A stretch of DNA of 27,177 nucleotides from an uncultured archaeon (GCA_964631415.1 CAZVZC010000014.1:14343-41519); one strand, 5' to 3'; counted from the first letter of the stretch, positions 14,448-26,832 are shown. The notes: generated by a model not told the origin, from the letters alone. Program-made: numbers and translations.

Positions 14448-15092
14448 TTAGTGGTATCGCCCTCGTTCACGAATCACTTCCATTCTTGAGAGAGCAGGTT
14501 CGGCCGCACTGCCAAGGAGATTCACGTATCCTTCAAGTGTAGCAGTCAGCATGACCTCCTGTTGGTCCCAGTGGGTAGTTTCAAGTGCTCGCCGAATGAG
14601 GTGTAGGTCTACTCCCTTCATCTCAGTTGTCGCATTCCATTCTGCTAGTCCAAAGTCCACCATCCAGAGACGCGATTTGGTGTCGATGAGCACGTTGCTC
14701 GTCGTGGGGTCGCCATGCACGACATTGCCCTGATGCATGCGTGCAACTGATTGCCCGAATTCGAAGCAGATTTCACGAAGCCTTGACTCTGGCACCGTAC
14801 CTGCCAGCTGCTTCAGTTGTTTCCCCTCAATGAAGTCCATGGCTATTGTATAGTTCTCAAGATCCGTCCAGTGCACAGTCGGGGTTGATACCCCAAGTGC
14901 ACGAGCATAGGTCAGCATCTTGCATTCTCTGTTGGTCCTTGTCTTCTTCAGCAGTTCATCGATGTCCTTGAGGAGATAGGGTTTCTGGGGACGCCATTTC
15001 AGTACTATGGGATAACCCCATTGCTCGGTCTTGAATATGGTTGATTCCGCACCCATAGCCCATTTCTCTAGCCTCAAGACAAGGTCCTCCAA
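14448..15092 (-). CDS. bud32: KEOPS kinase/ATPase Bud32
   Basis: GAES, HGDPTTSN, DFGLA, VDLHL and terminal RGRY; overlaps the 3' end of kae1. Confidence 0.93.
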   Translation of the reverse strand: MEDLVLRLEKWAMGAESTIFKTEQWGYPIVLKWRPQKPYLLKDIDELLKKTRTNRECKMLTYARALGVSTPTVHWTDLENYTIAMDFIEGKQLKQLAGTVPESRLREICFEFGQSVARMHQGNVVHGDPTTSNVLIDTKSRLWMVDFGLAEWNATTEMKGVDLHLIRRALETTHWDQQEVMLTATLEGYVNLLGSAAEPALSRMEVIRERGRYH

Positions 15093-16069
15093 GTTATGTC
15101 CTGTTCATCAGTCCGCCACTTGGGTAACACATAAGACTCAGCGACCGAAAGCCTGTTTCCCGCACTGTACTGCAGGATACCTGTCCAAGCAATCATCGCA
15201 CCCTGATCGCCGGCAAGAGATGGTGAAACTGTGTGAAAGCGGGCGTTGTGCCTAGCAGCCACCCCCGCCAAGATCTCTCCGAGACGCCTATTCCGTGCCA
15301 CACCACCAGTGAGCAGGATTTCGCTCTTCTTTGTATGTGCAATGGCACGCTCTGCAACTTCAGCAAGCATACCGAAGGCCGTTTCCTGTATGCTGAAACA
15401 CAAATCGGGCAACGATATATGCTCCGATTGGAGTTTCCTAGCTGCTGTGAGCATTCCCGAGTAGCTCACATCCATACCCTTCACTGAGTAAGGTAGACTA
15501 TAGTATGTGTTCCCCTTCATGGCCTCCTGCTCTATTGCAGGTCCAGCAGGGAAGCGCATGCCCATTGTGCGTCCGAACACATCCAGCATGTTGCCAATAG
15601 CGATGTCAAGGGTTTCTCCGAAAGTCCGAAACCGATTACCGGCGAAGGCAATGACTTGGGTGTTGCCGCCTGAAACATAGACTGTGACGGGGTCCTTGAA
15701 CCCCGACTCTAGGCAGCCTATCTCGATGTGTGCCACACAGTGATTCACTCCCGCGAGAGGAACTTCTAGCTTCAATGCCAGTGATCGGGCCATTGTCGCC
15801 GTTGCCCTTAGACAGGGCCCGAGCCCAGGGCCCCTTGAGAACGCAATCAGGTTTATGTCACGAAAACCAATCCCAGCCTCTGTCAGTGCCTTCGCAATGA
15901 TATCTGGACCCTTGTCCGAGTGATGTCTACTTGCCTCGCGGGGATGGATGCCTCCCTCCTGTGGAGAAAGCATGTCCCAGACATTCGAGAGAACCTTGCC
16001 CTGATCCGAAACCACTCCTGCTCCGAACGAATGTGCGGTCCCTTCTATCCCGAGACATGTCAGAGACAA
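15074..16069 (-). CDS. kae1: tRNA N6-adenosine threonylcarbamoyltransferase Kae1
   Basis: LGIEGTAH, GPGLGPCL, NHCVAHIE, VSGGNTQ, GETLDIAIGN and GGVA. Confidence 0.97.
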   Translation of the reverse strand: MSLTCLGIEGTAHSFGAGVVSDQGKVLSNVWDMLSPQEGGIHPREASRHHSDKGPDIIAKALTEAGIGFRDINLIAFSRGPGLGPCLRATATMARSLALKLEVPLAGVNHCVAHIEIGCLESGFKDPVTVYVSGGNTQVIAFAGNRFRTFGETLDIAIGNMLDVFGRTMGMRFPAGPAIEQEAMKGNTYYSLPYSVKGMDVSYSGMLTAARKLQSEHISLPDLCFSIQETAFGMLAEVAERAIAHTKKSEILLTGGVARNRRLGEILAGVAARHNARFHTVSPSLAGDQGAMIAWTGILQYSAGNRLSVAESYVLPKWRTDEQDITWRTLS

Positions 16070-19794: not shown

Positions 19795-21306
19795 CTACTT
19801 ATCGGTCCTCCTGATGGCTTCAGAAAGACTCCCAATGACTCCAGCAGGTTCAACCTTTCTACGACGGATTTTGACAAAGGTTGGCACGGTGACCACTTCT
19901 CCAACAAAAAGGGCTTCTCCGACTTCGAGTGTCGTTATGGAGTCTAATGACGACCGGTCAATGCCCTCACTGCTCTTTCCGATGTGCTCAAGATCGTACG
20001 GGTTCGTGCACCTGAATACAGCCTGATTGCTGCACTGGCTTAGTACTGTTGTTGACAACTTTACGGGCCGCTGAGAAACTAGGCACAGTAGAGCAAAGAA
20101 CTTGCGTCCCTCTCGAGCAATCGTTTCGATTTGATTCCTTGAAATCGCCAGTTCGTGACGGCCCTCGGGACAGAACTGATGTGCCTCCTCTATGACTAGG
20201 AGGAATGGGGGTATTCTCTGCTGCCTTCTTAGAAAGAGAAGCTCACTCGCAAGGTACGATGTGACTATCTGTTTCTTCTTCAAACTGATGAAGTCACTGA
20301 GATCGATTAGAGTGAGCTTTCCGGGACTCATGATGCTGCTCACATCAGGTACTGCCTCAATGCCAAACAGACCAGTTTCATCCAGGTTGATGAGCCAACT
20401 GACAATCGCTTCTTTGGTGTTCTTGCTGATACTGTCATCACCACGAACCAGCTCCGCGAGGTCACTGAGTGTGTAGCGCTCCTTTGATCTCTTCCGTGCC
20501 TCCGATATTACTCGCCGCAGGTCACGTATCTGAATCCCACTCATGTCAGAAACAAAGGAACTCAATCCCTCAGCAGACAGCGATGGCACTGGTATCTGGA
20601 AGTGGGATCCACGGATGTGTTCAATCTCGATCTCACCATCAGAAAGGCCCAATTGGTCAGCGGTAATGTCTTTCAGGTATGTGTACTCGCCATGTACGTC
20701 CAAGACTACCACAGCAAGTCTTCCTTGTTCCTTGGCGCGCGAAAGAAGCTCTTCCAGTAGGACTGACACAAAATAGGACTTCCCCGCACCACTCATCGCA
20801 AGGATAGCTAAATGCTTTGAGAGCAGACGATCGATTGATGGTGTGAACTCAAGCTCATGATTGGACAGTCTACCCAATCTGAGTCCGTTCTTAGTTTCTA
20901 GTTTCAAGAACGGGGCAAGAACCTCTTCTTCAGTCCTTCTTACCGGGGCTCCCGGTGGGACTGAGAAGTAGGGACGTACGACCCGGCCTTCATCCCAGAA
21001 ACCCAATACGCGAACGCTTGCGATAGTGTACTGCCAACGATCGGTGGGAAGAATCGACCGAAGTGGCTCTCCCCTTGACTGATACTCTCTCACTGCCTCT
21101 GCATGTTCATAGTAGCGATTGGTCCGAACAAGATCCTGAACCCTTGCTATGACTGTGACACTTTCAACCATCACCGACACGAACTCGCCGCGCCGCACTA
21201 TGATCTCATCTGCGGCCCCCTCAACCACAAATGCGAACTCCAGTACATTCGGTGTGGACTCTGTACAGACAACTGTGCCAAGTCGGGCGTCTTGAGGATA
21301 TACCAT
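19795..21306 (-). CDS. herA: HerA-family bipolar helicase/ATPase
   Basis: N-terminal HAS barrel, HLAILAMSGAGKS (Walker A), DVHGEY, IEEAH (Walker B), IAREGRKF and SQRP. Confidence 0.93.
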   Translation of the reverse strand: MVYPQDARLGTVVCTESTPNVLEFAFVVEGAADEIIVRRGEFVSVMVESVTVIARVQDLVRTNRYYEHAEAVREYQSRGEPLRSILPTDRWQYTIASVRVLGFWDEGRVVRPYFSVPPGAPVRRTEEEVLAPFLKLETKNGLRLGRLSNHELEFTPSIDRLLSKHLAILAMSGAGKSYFVSVLLEELLSRAKEQGRLAVVVLDVHGEYTYLKDITADQLGLSDGEIEIEHIRGSHFQIPVPSLSAEGLSSFVSDMSGIQIRDLRRVISEARKRSKERYTLSDLAELVRGDDSISKNTKEAIVSWLINLDETGLFGIEAVPDVSSIMSPGKLTLIDLSDFISLKKKQIVTSYLASELLFLRRQQRIPPFLLVIEEAHQFCPEGRHELAISRNQIETIAREGRKFFALLCLVSQRPVKLSTTVLSQCSNQAVFRCTNPYDLEHIGKSSEGIDRSSLDSITTLEVGEALFVGEVVTVPTFVKIRRRKVEPAGVIGSLSEAIRRTDK

Positions 21307-21312
21307 CAGCTC

Positions 21313-22473
21313 TCAGCCTCCAAAGGGGTTTCTGGACCGTCTCTTTTCGAGTGCCGTGTAGGTCAGACCAGAAAGCGCCATTAATCGATCTACAATGAGC
21401 TGTGATTCATTGTTGCTGATTCTCGCCCTAGCATCTGCCTCTACTATTGGCGTCGGAATGCCGTATTCGTCGTGTTGTGATGATAGCGGCATTATGGCAG
21501 ATAGTGCCTTGTCAAGGGACTTGGCGTCCTCATCATCTCCTCTTGCCAGAACCTCAACCCTCAGTGGCAAGTCCTCTCGTGCAGTCTTAAGATAGGTCAC
21601 CCAAATCCTAGAAGCCCACGGTGACAAATCCTCAGGGAAAGAGTTGAGACTCTGCTGCAGTTCTGAGGAGTACTTGAATGCAAAAGTCCTCTCGCCCTCC
21701 TCTAGGAACGTGTCCAAGATGTCACAGTCTCTTGAGATTCTGAGCAACCATCGATAGTCGACACCTTGCATCATTTCAAAGACAGATGGATCCCTCATGA
21801 GGTGTGGTAAGACATCGCCCAATATAGTGGCAACGCGGGTTGAACGACTGTCCTTAACAATGCCTACCAGAGTCGTCCCTTTCTCATTGGCCTTGCGATA
21901 CATCTGCCTGTAGAGTGCCAAGACTTCCTGAAACTTGTCATTTGTGGCGGATCCGCTAGGCGGACGGTCGCGCGGGTGGTAGAACAGGCTGCCATCGACA
22001 AGAATCAGATCCGCATGGAACTCGTCAAGCACTGACAGTGTCACTCTTAGTTCAGTAGCCATTCTCTCTAACGAAACAAACTGGTCTAGTTCCAGTCCGG
22101 AAAGTGTGAGCATGATTGGTTTGACACTGGGACTTGGAAACGGGCTTGGAAAGAAGTCCACGGAGGGCCCCTCCTTTGGGCCGAACTGAAAGATAACTGC
22201 AATGCCACGTGTGAGGACCAAGTCCATCGATCTGAAGCTTCTCCGAACTAGTCCTCCGTCGATGCCTACTATCCTGAGACCCGATAGGGCCGTTGGCTCT
22301 ATTCGTGTTACGAAGCTGGTGTCTACGGTATTCGTTGCCACTGCGGGAAAACGTCGAAGGTCAATGTTGTTCTTTATTCGTCTGAGAACTCCTCCAAAAC
22401 GCTCACGAGTCGACTGTACTCTCTCGATTTCTTCGACAAGCGCAGAAAGCATCTTGTCGAGGCTCCGATCCAC
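21313..22473 (-). CDS. nurA: NurA 5'-3' nuclease
   Basis: VGIDGG, ILVDGSL, GIVKDSRS and YGIPTPIVEADARA. Confidence 0.92.
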   Translation of the reverse strand: MDRSLDKMLSALVEEIERVQSTRERFGGVLRRIKNNIDLRRFPAVATNTVDTSFVTRIEPTALSGLRIVGIDGGLVRRSFRSMDLVLTRGIAVIFQFGPKEGPSVDFFPSPFPSPSVKPIMLTLSGLELDQFVSLERMATELRVTLSVLDEFHADLILVDGSLFYHPRDRPPSGSATNDKFQEVLALYRQMYRKANEKGTTLVGIVKDSRSTRVATILGDVLPHLMRDPSVFEMMQGVDYRWLLRISRDCDILDTFLEEGERTFAFKYSSELQQSLNSFPEDLSPWASRIWVTYLKTAREDLPLRVEVLARGDDEDAKSLDKALSAIMPLSSQHDEYGIPTPIVEADARARISNNESQLIVDRLMALSGLTYTALEKRRSRNPFGG

Positions 22474-24149
22474 TAGGTTTCCCTCTTGTGTTTGTGTTCT
22501 AAGGCGGCTCTCAGAAAGGCGACATAAAGCGGGTGTGCACTATCCGGCCTAGACTTGAACTCGGGATGGTACTGCACTCCTATCCAGAATGGATGATCCC
22601 TCAACTCGACTGCATTGATTATCTTCCCTGTCGGGTCGTATGCGGAGATTGTCATCCCCTCACTCCTCATGCGGTGGACGTATCTCTCAATGAGGTGAAA
22701 CCGGTGCCTGAATCTCTCTCTTGTTTCAGTCAGTCCATAGATGCTGTGGAGTCGAGTGCCCTCGACAATCCTGACCCCTTGCCCACCGACCCTCATTGTT
22801 CCGCCCTTCTCATCTGTGGTTCTCTGATCATCCATCAAGTCAACGACTGGGTAGAGACTGTCCGGGTCCACCTCTGTAGTGTTCGCGCCCTGCCAGCCCA
22901 TTCGCTTTCTAGCAAAGGCTACCGTCCCAAGCTGACCACCATAGCAGATGCCGAGGAACGGGATGTCGTCTTCAAATGTCACAGCCGCAGCATTAATCAT
23001 ACCCTCGACCCCGCGGGATCCAAAACCTGGAGTCAAAAGCACTCCGTCGACGGCAGCGAACTCCTCGCGTAGGCAGTCTTCTTCGTATTTTGATTCTGTG
23101 TCTACCCACTTTATTTCGACCTTCACACTACTCTGTGCTCCTGCATGTGCTAAAGCCTCACTGATGCTCTTGTATGAGTCACTCAGAGTTGTGTACTTCC
23201 CAGGCATGGCAATTGTCACAGTTTCCGAATGGGTTTCGAGCGCCTTCACCGTTTCGCGCCATGAGTCAGTTTCGGGCACATGGGGCTCTAGTCCAAAGAA
23301 ACTAACGAGCGTTTCACCCAGACCTTGGTCCTCAAACGACAAGGGTAGTTGATAGACTACTGGGATGTCAGGATTCGAGATGACTCTCTCTTCAGGGACG
23401 TTGCAGAATAGAGCAATCTTCCTTCGTGGAGAATCGGGAAGACTCCGTTCAGCTCTGCACACAATGATGTCTGGCTGGAGTCCCAGACCCTGAAGAGCAC
23501 GGACACTGTGCTGTGTTGGTTTTGTCTTGAATTCGCCTACCGCAGCAAAATACGGTACAAGGGTTACGTGGACAAGAGCAGCCCTCTCTCGGCCCACCTC
23601 TCTTGACAGCTGTCTTACGGCCTCCAAGAAGGGCATGGCTTCAATGTCACCGACTGTCCCTCCAACCTCTACTAGCAGCACATCTGGTCTTGGTTCCTTG
23701 TTGGCGACTTCCCATATTCGCCGCTTGATACAGTCAGTGACATGAGGGATTATCTGTACTGTTTTGCCCAAGAATCTACCCTTTCTCTCTTCTAGAATGA
23801 CAGAGAGGTAGATTTGCCCTGAAGTTATGTTCTGAGATGGATGGACATCCATCCCGATGAATCGTTCATAGGTGCCAAAGTCCTGATCAACTTCGGTGAT
23901 TCTGAACTCGGAGTCATCTGCGGGTCTAAACACCCACGTCTGGTCGGTCACAAACACCTCACCGTGCTCAATGGGATTGAGAGTTCCGGGGTCGATGTTG
24001 AGGTAGGGGTCAATCTTCACAATCTGAATCTTGTACCCGCGAAACTGCAGTATCTTTGCTATCGATGCGGTGGTCACACCCTTCCCGATGCCAGATAGAA
24101 CACCTCCTGTCACAAATACGAACCTTGTGCTATTATTGTCAGACTTCAA
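22473..24149 (-). CDS. pyrG: CTP synthase
   Basis: [47 protein letters not shown] and HPEF; TTG 24149 preferred. Confidence 0.97.
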
Positions 24150-24268
24150 GACAGAACCCTCGAGATGATGAGCAGATTGGGTCTGGAGGAAACCCCTGAC
24201 CGTGCCAGTTGTGTGAGGTCGTAAAAAGCTATTCGCTTGACTCGTTCGGTTTCCACCGGCCCGTGTTT

Positions 24269-24850
24269 TCACAGTAGGGACGGAGCAAGGATACTTGTGC
24301 GTATGGCGTCTTGGAATAGAAAGGAGAACGCTTCTACAATATTGAATCCTTCCTTTGCTATGCTTCTGAAAACAGGGACTGACGAGGGGAGCTTGAGGTA
24401 GGATCTAATCGTATCCTCCGAAACCGTTCCAAGAAGGTCTTGCTTGTTGAGACATACAACAACCGGAAGAGGCCGTTCTTCGTCAGCCATCATCGTCATC
24501 AACTCATTCCAGCTCGCCAGATTCTCCTTCAAGAGGTGTTCTTGTGAGTCTGCAACGAATATCACACCATCAGCTCCCACTAGGACGACCTCTCTTGTTG
24601 ACCTGTAGAAGTCCTGTCCGGTTGCAGACCAGATGTGAGCACTAAGCGTCCAATTGTTACCCAAGGAGAACGGGATGGTACCGAAGTCGCAGAACATCGT
24701 TCGGCCTGCGGTGTTCTCGATTGATGTAAGACAGTCTGCACATTCAAACTTCGAGAACAACCACCTTAATGACGTGGTCTTTCCACTCATCGCAGGGCCA
24801 AAGAACACAATCTTGACTCCGACTGTTCGGCTGCCGTAGTCGATTATCAC
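24269..24850 (-). CDS. MglA-type small Ras-superfamily GTPase
   Basis: KIVFFGPAMSGKTT (G1), GRTMFCDF (G2 with Arg), SATGQ (Asp-less G3), GVIFVADSQ and NKQD (G4). GGAGG SD overlaps the upstream stop; GTG 24850 preferred. Confidence 0.9.
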   Translation of the reverse strand: MIIDYGSRTVGVKIVFFGPAMSGKTTSLRWLFSKFECADCLTSIENTAGRTMFCDFGTIPFSLGNNWTLSAHIWSATGQDFYRSTREVVLVGADGVIFVADSQEHLLKENLASWNELMTMMADEERPLPVVVCLNKQDLLGTVSEDTIRSYLKLPSSVPVFRSIAKEGFNIVEAFSFLFQDAIRTSILAPSLL

Positions 24851-24866
24851 CTTGCTCTTGACCCTC

Positions 24867-25787
24867 CTATGTTCCCCACATGCTGTCAACCCAAGCCCCC
24901 AACCCGGAGAGAGCGCCGCCCTTGACACAGTCGGAGAAGTCTTCGTGCCACTCTCCTCTGATGAAGCGGACCAGCTCAGGCATCTCTCCGGTTTCCCACC
25001 CGATGGCCTCGTAGAGATTCCGGTCGGTAAGCGTGATGGATGCTCCAAGCTGTCGAGCCAATCTTATACGTGAAAGGATCATCACAGCCCTGCGAGCCGC
25101 GTGGACATAGCTGTTGATCTCTTCATCGAACATATCATGTGTCAGCTTCTCGGAGTCGTCGTCAAGTTTCAGGACTTCATCCGCTATTTGCTCGGAGACA
25201 TTCAGATCACGTAAGGACTTCCTGAGTAGACGCCGAATTCGCTCAAGAGACTGTGTCTTTCGGCTGAGTATCTTGTTGACGATCATCTTCTCAACGTCTA
25301 GACAAGGCAGACCTGACTTGACAAGCGAAAAGCTGATTGCAGATGGCGATGTGACTCTGAGTACGCCGCAGTTGCCTGAGGTCTGCAGGATGTGTGACGC
25401 CGCCTTCACAAGAGTTTCCTCAGTCACGTGAAGCCCGAGAACGTCAGCGCCTAGAGGTATTGATACTATCCACCCCATGAACTGGGTGATCCGATCCAAA
25501 GCCAGCCTCAGACTACTCGATAGGCAACACACGACTGTCCGGCTCACCTCGTAGTCATGCCGCTCCTCGTCCCATACTGATCGGATCTCCCCCTCAGAGG
25601 TGAAATCGCGCCAAAAGACAAACTTGTGACGGTGCGGACACAGCATTGTCAGACTCTCCGTGAGGTCATCCACGAGTTCGGTGTCCTCCCCCGCCACCAA
25701 GATGGGTATTCGACCGAGTACCGAGTTCAAGAGCAATGGAAAGCCTGTGTTTGCCAGCTCTATCATCTGCATGATTGAGTAGGTCAC
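24867..25787 (-). CDS. Uncharacterised protein, candidate DENN-core (cDENN/dDENN)-like domain
   Basis: 306-aa ORF with a GTGA overlap to the upstream gene. N-terminal LNSVLGRIPILVAGEDTELVDDLTESLTMLCP follows the helix-strand-helix-P pattern recalled for folliculin/SMCR8 cDENN. The CDS is well supported; the fold call is tentative. Confidence 0.6.
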   Translation of the reverse strand: MTYSIMQMIELANTGFPLLLNSVLGRIPILVAGEDTELVDDLTESLTMLCPHRHKFVFWRDFTSEGEIRSVWDEERHDYEVSRTVVCCLSSSLRLALDRITQFMGWIVSIPLGADVLGLHVTEETLVKAASHILQTSGNCGVLRVTSPSAISFSLVKSGLPCLDVEKMIVNKILSRKTQSLERIRRLLRKSLRDLNVSEQIADEVLKLDDDSEKLTHDMFDEEINSYVHAARRAVMILSRIRLARQLGASITLTDRNLYEAIGWETGEMPELVRFIRGEWHEDFSDCVKGGALSGLGAWVDSMWGT

Positions 25788-26731
25788 TGGTTTCGCCTCG
25801 CAAGAACAAGACCTCCGGAAGTGCCGGACATGAGCAGTTCCCTGAGGTCATCTGGAACAGTAGGTTTCACCACGGAGGCAGAAGCCAGCACTCTTCGGGT
25901 TTCTTCTATGTAGTGCTTCAATAGCAACCTAATCAGTCCCAGCTTCTGGCTGGTTCGGTCAACCCAAAGGCTGAACACTCCGTTCGGTACTGCATAGATG
26001 AAGTGCCTAACGCGATCCGTTTCGCACAGCACGGTCTCAAGAGAACTGTTGCGAAGAGTCTTCACAACCCGTTCTGATGCATCGTATAGGGCAAATGACA
26101 TTGCAGCCATTCTGTCGTTTGTGAAGCCGTCAAGAGACACGCGGACACCTCCGCTCAACGCCAGAAAGACGGACTCGATTTCGCTGACGCTGTCGTGAAC
26201 TTGCCGTAGAATGTTCCTGAGTGCCATGGCTTGAGACCGATCTAGCGAAATAATCGAGCGGTTGGCCGCGTAGGCTGTACTGCGACTCTCTGCGACCGAG
26301 AACCCAGAAAGCACCTGCCGAGTTTCATCGGCGTTGTAAGAACGAAGCGGTGGAAGACGTTTCTCTGCCTCTTGCTTCAATAGAAATGACACCCGCGACA
26401 GAGAGTCTCTCATCTCAATGAAGAGCGCTGCAAGATTGACTCTGGGTGCTGTGGTGATTGCAAGAAAGTAGTCCGGGTCGTTGGGTAATGACGCTAGGAA
26501 GACCTTGGAAGTATCTGATTCCATCAAGAGATACTTGAAGCCATTGTGGATGAGTTTGGCCACCCCGAATATCGCACATGAGGAGGAAGCTACTGCAAAG
26601 ACCTCCTCCTTGCTGAACCATACACCTGCACTGGCAACCGGAAGGCCGTCCTTCTGAATGAGAACAACATTCTCAACTCCAGAGATTGTCTTGATGTTCT
26701 GGAGAGTTTCGTTGAGGCCTTCGATCACCAT
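25784..26731 (-). CDS. Tandem double Roadblock/LC7 (MglB-like) protein
   Basis: Two ~110-aa units: GVENVVLIQKDGLPVAS...VNLAALFIEM and EIESVFLALSGGVRV...MAAMSFAL...KLGLIRLLL. Confidence 0.85.
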   Translation of the reverse strand: MVIEGLNETLQNIKTISGVENVVLIQKDGLPVASAGVWFSKEEVFAVASSSCAIFGVAKLIHNGFKYLLMESDTSKVFLASLPNDPDYFLAITTAPRVNLAALFIEMRDSLSRVSFLLKQEAEKRLPPLRSYNADETRQVLSGFSVAESRSTAYAANRSIISLDRSQAMALRNILRQVHDSVSEIESVFLALSGGVRVSLDGFTNDRMAAMSFALYDASERVVKTLRNSSLETVLCETDRVRHFIYAVPNGVFSLWVDRTSQKLGLIRLLLKHYIEETRRVLASASVVKPTVPDDLRELLMSGTSGGLVLARRNQ

Positions 26732-26773
26732 GCAACCCCACATCAATCAGTTCAAGGTAGATTCCCAGTGTAC

Positions 26774-26784
26774 ACTATATAATC
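26774..26784 (-). promoter_or_regulatory. TATA box for Roadblock-DENN-GTPase operon
   Basis: gattatatagt on the minus strand about 45 nt upstream of ATG 26731. Confidence 0.55.
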
Positions 26785-26832
26785 ACCACACAGCAGGAGC
26801 TTCAGAGTCATCCCACTAAGCGATAGTGCGTG

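Follow-up and report, generated by a model that had tools for sequence, protein, structure and literature searches.

A tandem Roadblock, DENN-like and MglA-type GTPase trio kept together in many Asgard archaea

A 27,177-nucleotide stretch of DNA from an uncultured archaeon (GCA_964631415.1 CAZVZC010000014.1:14343-41519; hereafter the window, to which all coordinates refer) carries three minus-strand genes that lie head to tail and, as read from the sequence, encode a tandem Roadblock protein (Robl2), a 306-residue protein with a predicted DENN-type fold (P0002) and a small GTPase of the MglA type. This trio is the Thorarchaeote copy of a probable three-gene small-GTPase switch which has been kept together in many Asgard archaea. 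On balance, the reading that we favour is of a self-contained switch, in which an MglA-type GTPase would be served by Robl2 as an MglB-like platform and by the DENN-fold protein as a second regulator. The genome concerned is 2.16 Mb in size and 85% complete, and the window is the end of its contig C14.

The order of the three genes, Robl2 followed by the DENN-like gene and then the GTPase gene, was identical in every one of the 46 loci examined, which represent at least 10 families of Asgard archaea. The loci comprise all 30 Thorarchaeote-family (Thor-family) loci for which the flank was present and all 16 loci from other genera and families; one locus, L022, is cut and is without the Robl2 part alone. 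Synteny of this extent is far beyond chance, and the check on related genomes which had been proposed with the initial annotation of this DNA thus came out in favour of the three genes belonging together. A search with the family profile found the DENN-like gene in 170 of the 301 genomes sampled from the phylum, in almost all cases as a single copy. Ten families carry it at strong E-values, in 164 of their 182 sampled genomes: f1 (74/76), f9 (57/68), f12 (16/19), f3 (4/4), f15 (4/4), f24 (5/7) and four families of which one genome each was sampled. The other 20 sampled families gave weak matches or none, and the gene was not found in f5 (0/28), f14 (0/11), f27 (0/11) and others. Strong orthologues of Robl2 occur in the same families as the DENN-like gene, with only weak Roadblock paralogues elsewhere. 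When the flanking open reading frames (ORFs) were compared all against all, no further gene common across families was found within about 3 kb of the trio, the flanks being variable.

Some distant members of the DENN-like family were also located. P0161 (311 residues, E 4e-18) lies after genes for 194 and 281 residues on the same strand (ENA ERZ27256843 / ERZ27256988), and for P0187 and P0184 there was no adjacent GTPase-sized partner with a family match. These contexts have no bearing on the operon of the Thor family.

The GTPase is confirmed by its sequence as MglA-type. A phmmer search against PDB sequences returned four MglA sequences as the best matches (E 3.1e-27 to 4.1e-27), 19 orders of magnitude ahead of the next, Rab11B (E 1.1e-8). 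Pfam recognised only the generic Arf/Roc/Ras/Gtr1 families, with Arf at 5e-10 and Gtr1_RagA, weaker than both Arf and Ras, at 2.9e-5. The motifs of the protein are a P-loop GPAMSGKT, G49-R50-T51 in switch I, S75-A-T-G-Q79 in switch II and NKQD, and residue alignment sets R50, Q79 and S75 on R53, Q82 and T78 of Myxococcus xanthus MglA, of which R53 is the intrinsic arginine finger, Q82 is catalytic and T78 puts a hydroxyl residue in the place of the Asp that is canonical in DxxGQ. The G3 motif of the trio GTPase is likewise without Asp, position 75 being Ser or Thr in all 22 orthologues, which come from several families; invariant among these are P-loop positions 18-21, 23 and 24, G49-R50-T51, T77-G78-Q79, and N135, K136 and D138 of NKxD. 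At 193 residues the protein is a G domain alone, without a C-terminal Roadblock domain.

The same genome has about 10 small-GTPase genes, including two paralogues of the trio GTPase at 38-39% identity. One of these, MglA-like and 39% identical, lies at L049 (G000:C1:100246-103764; ORFs 291-746, 762-1229, 1477-2040 and 2051-2431). There it stands among three genes for single-domain Roadblock proteins, two of them upstream of it and the third downstream, after which comes a gene for undecaprenyl-diphosphate synthase. The cluster is mglBA-like, separate from the trio, and has no DENN gene. The other paralogue, a third MglA-like GTPase (L050, G000:C11:18769-22287, ORF 1483-2352 on the minus strand; 38% identity), is extended at its N-terminus by about 110 residues, which have no family match, and the small ORFs next to it have no Pfam match. 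In family f9 a second small-GTPase gene, matching the trio GTPase at E 1e-13 to 1e-19, was seen at L033:1723-2418 (+), L040:1-447 (+) and L041:1-423 (+), on the strand opposite to the trio GTPase gene, 0.5-2.5 kb beyond it and converging on it.

Robl2 matched Pfam Robl_LC7 in two stretches (E 3.1e-10), whilst NCBIfam gave no match. The AlphaFold2 (AF2) model, with a predicted local distance difference test score (pLDDT) of 78 and a predicted template modelling score (pTM) of 0.75, consists of two alpha-beta-beta-alpha-beta-beta-beta-alpha units, residues ~1-125 and 159-284, with a linker of low confidence between them. The N-domain has its best structural match in M. xanthus MglB (6hjm_B; Z 13.7, root-mean-square deviation (rmsd) 1.6 over 119 residues), and this domain also matches Asgard Roadblock crystal structures and LAMTOR2 (Foldseek E 1.2e-6). 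The C-domain aligns with the C-terminal Roadblock domain of RagC (6u62_C; Z 11.1, rmsd 2.8 over 123 residues) and with dynein Roadblock (Z 10.1). Both halves have the Roadblock fold, and a comparison of one with the other by hhalign found them to be homologous (probability 81.5%, E 1.1e-5, 110 columns); Robl2 therefore arose by internal duplication and comprises two diverged domains fused in one chain. Judging by the pTM of the model, the two halves may pack against each other as an intramolecular pseudo-dimer resembling the MglB dimer.

The middle protein, P0002, had no Pfam match at E ≤ 1 and no NCBIfam match. It is 70-75% identical to 306-residue proteins of many Candidatus Thorarchaeota, to which nearly all of its database relatives belong, and an exhaustive profile search with the family reached only 76 clusters at 50% identity, so that the family is small and centred on the Asgard archaea. 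AF2 gave a model of medium quality (pLDDT 66, pTM 0.70). In a VIA-align structural search of 48,161 chains, which is independent of Foldseek, the top six matches of this model were all DENN proteins (Z 13.2-10.4) and spanned both the core and the helical part: residues 345-558 of folliculin (FLCN; 6nzd_H and 3v42_B) were the best match at Z 13.2 (rmsd 3.5, 189 residues), followed by DENND10 (Z 12.4), two entries of SMCR8 (Z 11.7 and 10.9) and DENND1A (Z 10.4). The best Foldseek match was also the C-terminal domain of folliculin, a weak one (E 6e-3); an Atlas shape search gave SMCR8 and DENN clusters at a template modelling score of about 0.5, and those language-model neighbours that bear names are all of the DENN clan (C9orf72-like, Folliculin_C/SMCR8_C, SPA and DENND11, with scores of 0.95-0.85). 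Among 48 members of the family, two were matched by Folliculin_C (best E 4.8e-4) and one by the DENN profile (E 0.093). When the family profile was run against PDB sequences, its only matches were to ferritins, spurious ones along a helical stretch, and no DENN entry was reached. A Walker A motif is absent after strand 1 (VAGEDTELV). Because of the six leading DENN matches, the Atlas clusters, the language-model neighbours, the Folliculin_C matches and the missing Walker A motif, we hold with high confidence that the protein as modelled has a DENN-type fold, made up of a cDENN alpha/beta core and a helical dDENN part. The initial annotation had named a tandem Roadblock protein, a DENN-like protein and an MglA-type GTPase, and all three identities are supported by the results given above.

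The longin (uDENN) domain is absent from this protein: the start of the FLCN DENN domain (345) falls on residue 1 of the model, and a length of 306 residues leaves no room for it. Because the longin domain is missing from the chain, the protein falls outside the definition of the tripartite DENN module. Longer or fused relatives, in which a Roadblock or longin domain is joined to the DENN-like part, were not found in the search, although this is weak evidence. The positions conserved family-wide include R26, P28, R53, E75, R83, W106 and E166. Strongly conserved throughout the family is also the C-terminal tail EW..DF...GD...(L/M)WG (residues 279-306; window 24870-24950), which was modelled at pLDDT < 50 and may be a docking peptide or an amphipathic helix.

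The features of the trio are collected in Table 1. The Robl2 stop and the GTG start of the DENN gene overlap by 4 nucleotides (nt) as GTGA (25784-25787), and the first G of the GTPase Shine-Dalgarno sequence (24867) is the last base of the DENN-gene stop (24867-24869), an overlap of a single base. The start codons of all three genes were placed by orthologue alignments. Two longer forms were rejected as over-extensions: a Robl2 ORF starting at TTG 26746, which has no backing from the orthologue alignment, and a GTPase ORF of 259 residues, the orthologues of which start MIIDYG at the position of GTG 24850.

Table 1. Genes and putative signals of the trio, in window coordinates
Feature	Position	Strand	Remarks
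Robl2	25784..26731	-	ATG 26731, TGA 25784-25786; 315 residues; tandem Roadblock/LC7
DENN-fold protein (P0002; fold predicted)	24867..25787	-	GTG 25787-25785, TAG 24869-24867; 306 residues
MglA-type small GTPase	24269..24850	-	GTG 24850, TGA 24271-24269; 193 residues
GGAGGG, Shine-Dalgarno of GTPase gene	24862..24867	-	read directly; 11 nt before GTG 24850
CTGTGTGGTGATTATATAG, putative promoter	26775..26793	-	19 nt; stretch like a B recognition element (BRE) plus TATA box
ATCTACCTTGAAC, second conserved upstream block	26750..26762	-	at the distance expected for transcription start/5' leader; putative role
GCTTTTTACGA, window version of the conserved TTTATACGAC-type TATA box	24219..24229	-	found by comparing Thor-family downstream DNA

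The putative promoter CTGTGTGGTGATTATATAG was kept in 9 of 9 Thor-family loci, beyond which the upstream DNA could not be aligned. It contains the TATA box TTATATA (26776-26782) and precedes the Robl2 ATG by about 48 nt. The second upstream block appears in the Thor-family alignment as TTCTACTTTGAAC / TCTACYTTGAAC. The single TATA box and the tight coupling of the genes, both of which the initial annotation had pointed out, are present and were correctly placed. We consider it reasonably probable that the three genes form one transcription unit, because of the GTGA overlap, the Shine-Dalgarno sequence on a stop codon, the single conserved BRE/TATA element upstream and a separate TATA box for pyrG, the CTP synthase gene that follows.

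This last box, of the TTTATACGAC type, stands about 40 nt past the GTPase stop and has equivalents in nine further loci (L002, L005, L010, L015, L023, L026, L030, L046 and L047). About 45 codons at the 5' end of the pyrG ORF (22473-24272) are an over-extension, and the CTP-synthase Pfam domain begins only at residue 50 of it; together with the conserved box this indicates that pyrG has a promoter of its own. Going by the sequence, GCTTTTTACGA is probably that promoter, the T5 run within it is a possible candidate terminator for the trio, and the element as a whole would mark the 3' limit of the unit. The overlap of pyrG with the GTPase stop is thus not a true one. Nor was pyrG accepted as a fourth gene of the operon, as it has its own TATA box, lies downstream in the Thor family only, and has its place taken by a tRNA in two loci. 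In the latter (L013 and L017, both of the Thor family) the tRNA gene is on the opposite strand (sequence ...GGTTCAAATCCCGGCGGTCGCACCA when complemented), about 20-110 nt past the GTPase stop, where pyrG is usually found.

Downstream of the trio the window has genes for CTP synthase, NurA, a HerA-type helicase, a DUF460 protein, Kae1 and a Bud32-like kinase, all of them housekeeping genes. The genes for the NurA nuclease and the HerA-type (DUF87) helicase, which are the usual archaeal pair for end resection, lie directly downstream of pyrG on the minus strand (19795-22473), and Kae1 (TsaD) and the Bud32-like kinase are encoded by separate adjoining genes (14448-16069).

Whether a combination of this kind had been described before was left open by the initial annotation, and the answer is that it had. 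The available text of Liu et al. (bioRxiv 10.1101/2020.10.19.343400; Nature 2021) predicts an operon of a Roadblock protein, a small GTPase and a DENN protein, conserved in most Asgard archaea, likens the module to FLCN/Ragulator and proposes an FLCN-like regulator and a GEF-like function (guanine-nucleotide exchange factor, GEF). The Roadblock-DENN-GTPase combination is therefore already published and is not new. The same three component types, in one putative operon, are found in that text and in the present data, and the counts given above (170/301 genomes, 46/46 loci in the same order) agree with the conservation described there. However, the GTPase is called 'Rab-like' and the Roadblock protein 'LAMTOR1-like' in the text available, whereas in the present data the GTPase is of the MglA type, the Roadblock protein has two Roadblock domains fused in one chain, its N-domain being nearest to MglB, and the DENN protein is without a longin domain. 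Matched by description and not by accession, the trio is very probably the operon of Liu et al. No later paper testing the predicted operon was found in the literature searched. Tran et al. 2024 (PMC10933270) mention MglA-like GTPases in MK-D1 and do not mention DENN, and report that most Asgard GTPases are not found in operons with their regulators.

Among solved structures, the closest sequence relative of the GTPase is the MglA of the bacterial MglA-MglB system (Thermus thermophilus and M. xanthus; PDB 3t12, 6izw and 6h5b). As in MglA, an intrinsic Arg, a Gln and a non-Asp G3 residue are kept, and as in MglA-MglB, the putative operon also encodes a Roadblock partner, with an N-domain that superposes on MglB. 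However, MglB pairs identical single-domain chains as a homodimer, whereas Robl2 carries two diverged Roadblock domains in a single chain, and the bacterial system is without a DENN-fold component, its other partners being RomR/RomX and MglC. The predicted cDENN and dDENN fold is shared with FLCN-FNIP, a GTPase-activating protein (GAP) for Rag, with C9orf72-SMCR8-WDR41, a GAP for Arf/Rab, and with DENND1, a GEF for Rab35; an association of a DENN gene with a small GTPase and a platform of the Roadblock/longin type is likewise in common with the eukaryotic longin-DENN complexes. Unlike these complexes, the DENN chain of the trio has neither a longin domain nor the longin arginine finger, its client would be MglA-type and not Rag, Arf or Rab, and no partner for a DENN-DENN heterodimer is evident, there being a single DENN-like gene per genome. 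With Ragulator, in which LAMTOR2/3 and LAMTOR4/5 heterodimers serve RagA/C, the trio shares the Roadblock fold and a pair of unlike Roadblock domains as one platform. Here, in contrast, the two domains are in one polypeptide, no wrapping or anchor subunit of the LAMTOR1 type was identified, and the GTPase is without the C-terminal Roadblock domain of RagA/C.

In the mechanism that we favour, the catalytic arginine and glutamine (R50 and Q79) would come from the GTPase itself, and Robl2 would correspond to the MglB-type Roadblock dimer, made as a single chain. From its homology, Robl2 most likely binds to the switch regions of the GTPase and, in the manner of MglB, brings the intrinsic residues into position, thereby stimulating hydrolysis. 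The strict co-inheritance of the DENN-fold protein and its fold suggest that it is most likely a second regulator of the same GTPase, acting as an exchange factor or as a co-factor; in the latter case it would, with the Roadblock platform, re-create the eukaryotic 'longin/Roadblock + DENN' arrangement. We infer this binding, and the GAP and GEF activities, from the sequences and models. A complex prediction with all three chains, in which the DENN-like protein was the scored partner, gave a score of 0.02, which is no verdict, neither for nor against binding.

There are several points which weigh against this mechanism and the assignments on which it builds. Which partner would be the GAP and which the GEF is assumed, on the pattern of MglB and DENND1. 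The catalytic (GAP) element of the eukaryotic FLCN and C9orf72-SMCR8 is the arginine of the longin domain, which is absent in the trio. The roles of the regulators in the bacterial MglA system are themselves under revision, according to the available part of PMC13408092, and the labels of Liu et al. differ from ours. In addition, the DENN assignment was made from a model of medium confidence (pLDDT 66), P0002 itself has no match to any hidden Markov model of the DENN clan, and the folds of P-loop ATPases resemble the DENN core and follow at Z 9-10.

It could thus be argued from the last of these points that the middle protein is a degenerate alpha/beta domain of the P-loop or secretion-ATPase kind, and its resemblance to DENN a coincidence of fold. 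The matches that come next after the DENN proteins are P-loop ATPase domains (Z ≤ 9.8), with RuvB-like, GspE and FlaI domains at Z 9.8-9.1 which are also among the Foldseek matches, and rows 4 and 8 of the Atlas search hold clusters from bacteria, one of which is in part T2SSE; the lack of a Pfam match, and a family profile that reaches nothing DENN-like among PDB sequences, would be in keeping with such an origin. However, the best match is more than 3 Z units above the first ATPase, and most of the ATPase matches cover only residues 1-160 of the model, whereas the DENN matches reach residues 284-302 and so take in the helical C-terminal part. The absent Walker A motif, the DENN names of the language-model neighbours and the Folliculin_C and DENN matches within the family speak against it as well, and we regard this as the most improbable of the readings. 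A different question is what the trio does, given a DENN-fold protein. It might be the archaeal counterpart of the bacterial MglA/MglB polarity system, with the DENN protein as an effector or a localisation adaptor, for example to surface structures or cytoskeletal elements, and not a regulator of the nucleotide cycle. MglA and MglB are indeed the closest to the GTPase and to the Robl2 N-domain, and a conserved tail of low model confidence is what would be expected of a docking peptide or amphipathic helix. Nevertheless, no pilus, archaellum or cytoskeleton gene adjoins the trio in the window, where the neighbours are pyrG and NurA/HerA, and none is conserved beside it across families. To our knowledge, all characterised DENN-fold proteins act on the nucleotide state of a GTPase or in complexes that do so. 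We thus consider a polarity role of this kind to be unlikely.

The initial annotation had gone further and suggested a possible minimal signalling module like that of Ragulator, Rag and folliculin. Taken at full strength, this would be a module for nutrient signalling, composed of a Ragulator-like Roadblock anchor, a folliculin-like GAP and a Rag-like GTPase. Of this proposal the three component types, the DENN-like fold and the synteny stand, and the structural matches lend it some colour: the middle protein is closest to the C-terminal DENN domain of folliculin, and the two domains of Robl2 match LAMTOR2 and the RagC C-terminal domain. Membership of the Rag family is not supported, a longin domain with an arginine finger is absent, and nothing connects the module with nutrient sensing. 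The GTPase is a bare MglA-type G domain without the C-terminal Roadblock domain (Gtr1_RagA 2.9e-5 as against 3e-27 for MglA), it has its own arginine whereas a folliculin-type finger would need the missing longin domain, and amongst the variable flanking genes none indicates amino-acid sensing. The available text of Liu et al. (10.1101/2020.10.19.343400) draws the same Ragulator/folliculin analogy, yet places the operon GTPase in a family distinct from Rag and describes Asgard archaea as being without TOR kinase. Because the GTPase is not a Rag, the comparison is an analogy only, and we regard a true module of this type as very unlikely. Somewhat less improbable, but still decidedly doubtful, is the idea that Robl2 and the longin-less DENN protein together represent the eukaryotic longin+DENN module in an ancestral, 'split' state, working on an MglA-type GTPase with its own arginine finger. 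If this were true, the trio, and not a Rag- or Rab-linked system, would mark the first recruitment of DENN to an MglB-type Roadblock platform, and the conserved C-terminal tail of the DENN protein would be a docking or allosteric element.

The favoured reading, of a self-contained MglA-type switch with a Roadblock platform and a DENN-fold second regulator, thus adds to the published prediction an MglA-type client with what would be an intrinsic arginine finger, a fused MglB-like pseudo-dimer as modelled, a predicted DENN protein that has no longin domain, a unit of strictly three genes and a conserved putative promoter. With these refinements the module is better read as 'MglAB plus DENN' than as a proto-Rag/folliculin system, and it becomes a tractable target for biochemistry. 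As a compact, single-copy and strictly syntenic trio it provides a matched set of GTPase and regulators, which are otherwise hard to assign to each other in Asgard genomes. DENN, longin/Roadblock and small-GTPase proteins make up the core logic of membrane traffic and nutrient signalling in eukaryotes, and the trio bears on the origin of the eukaryotic GTPase regulators.

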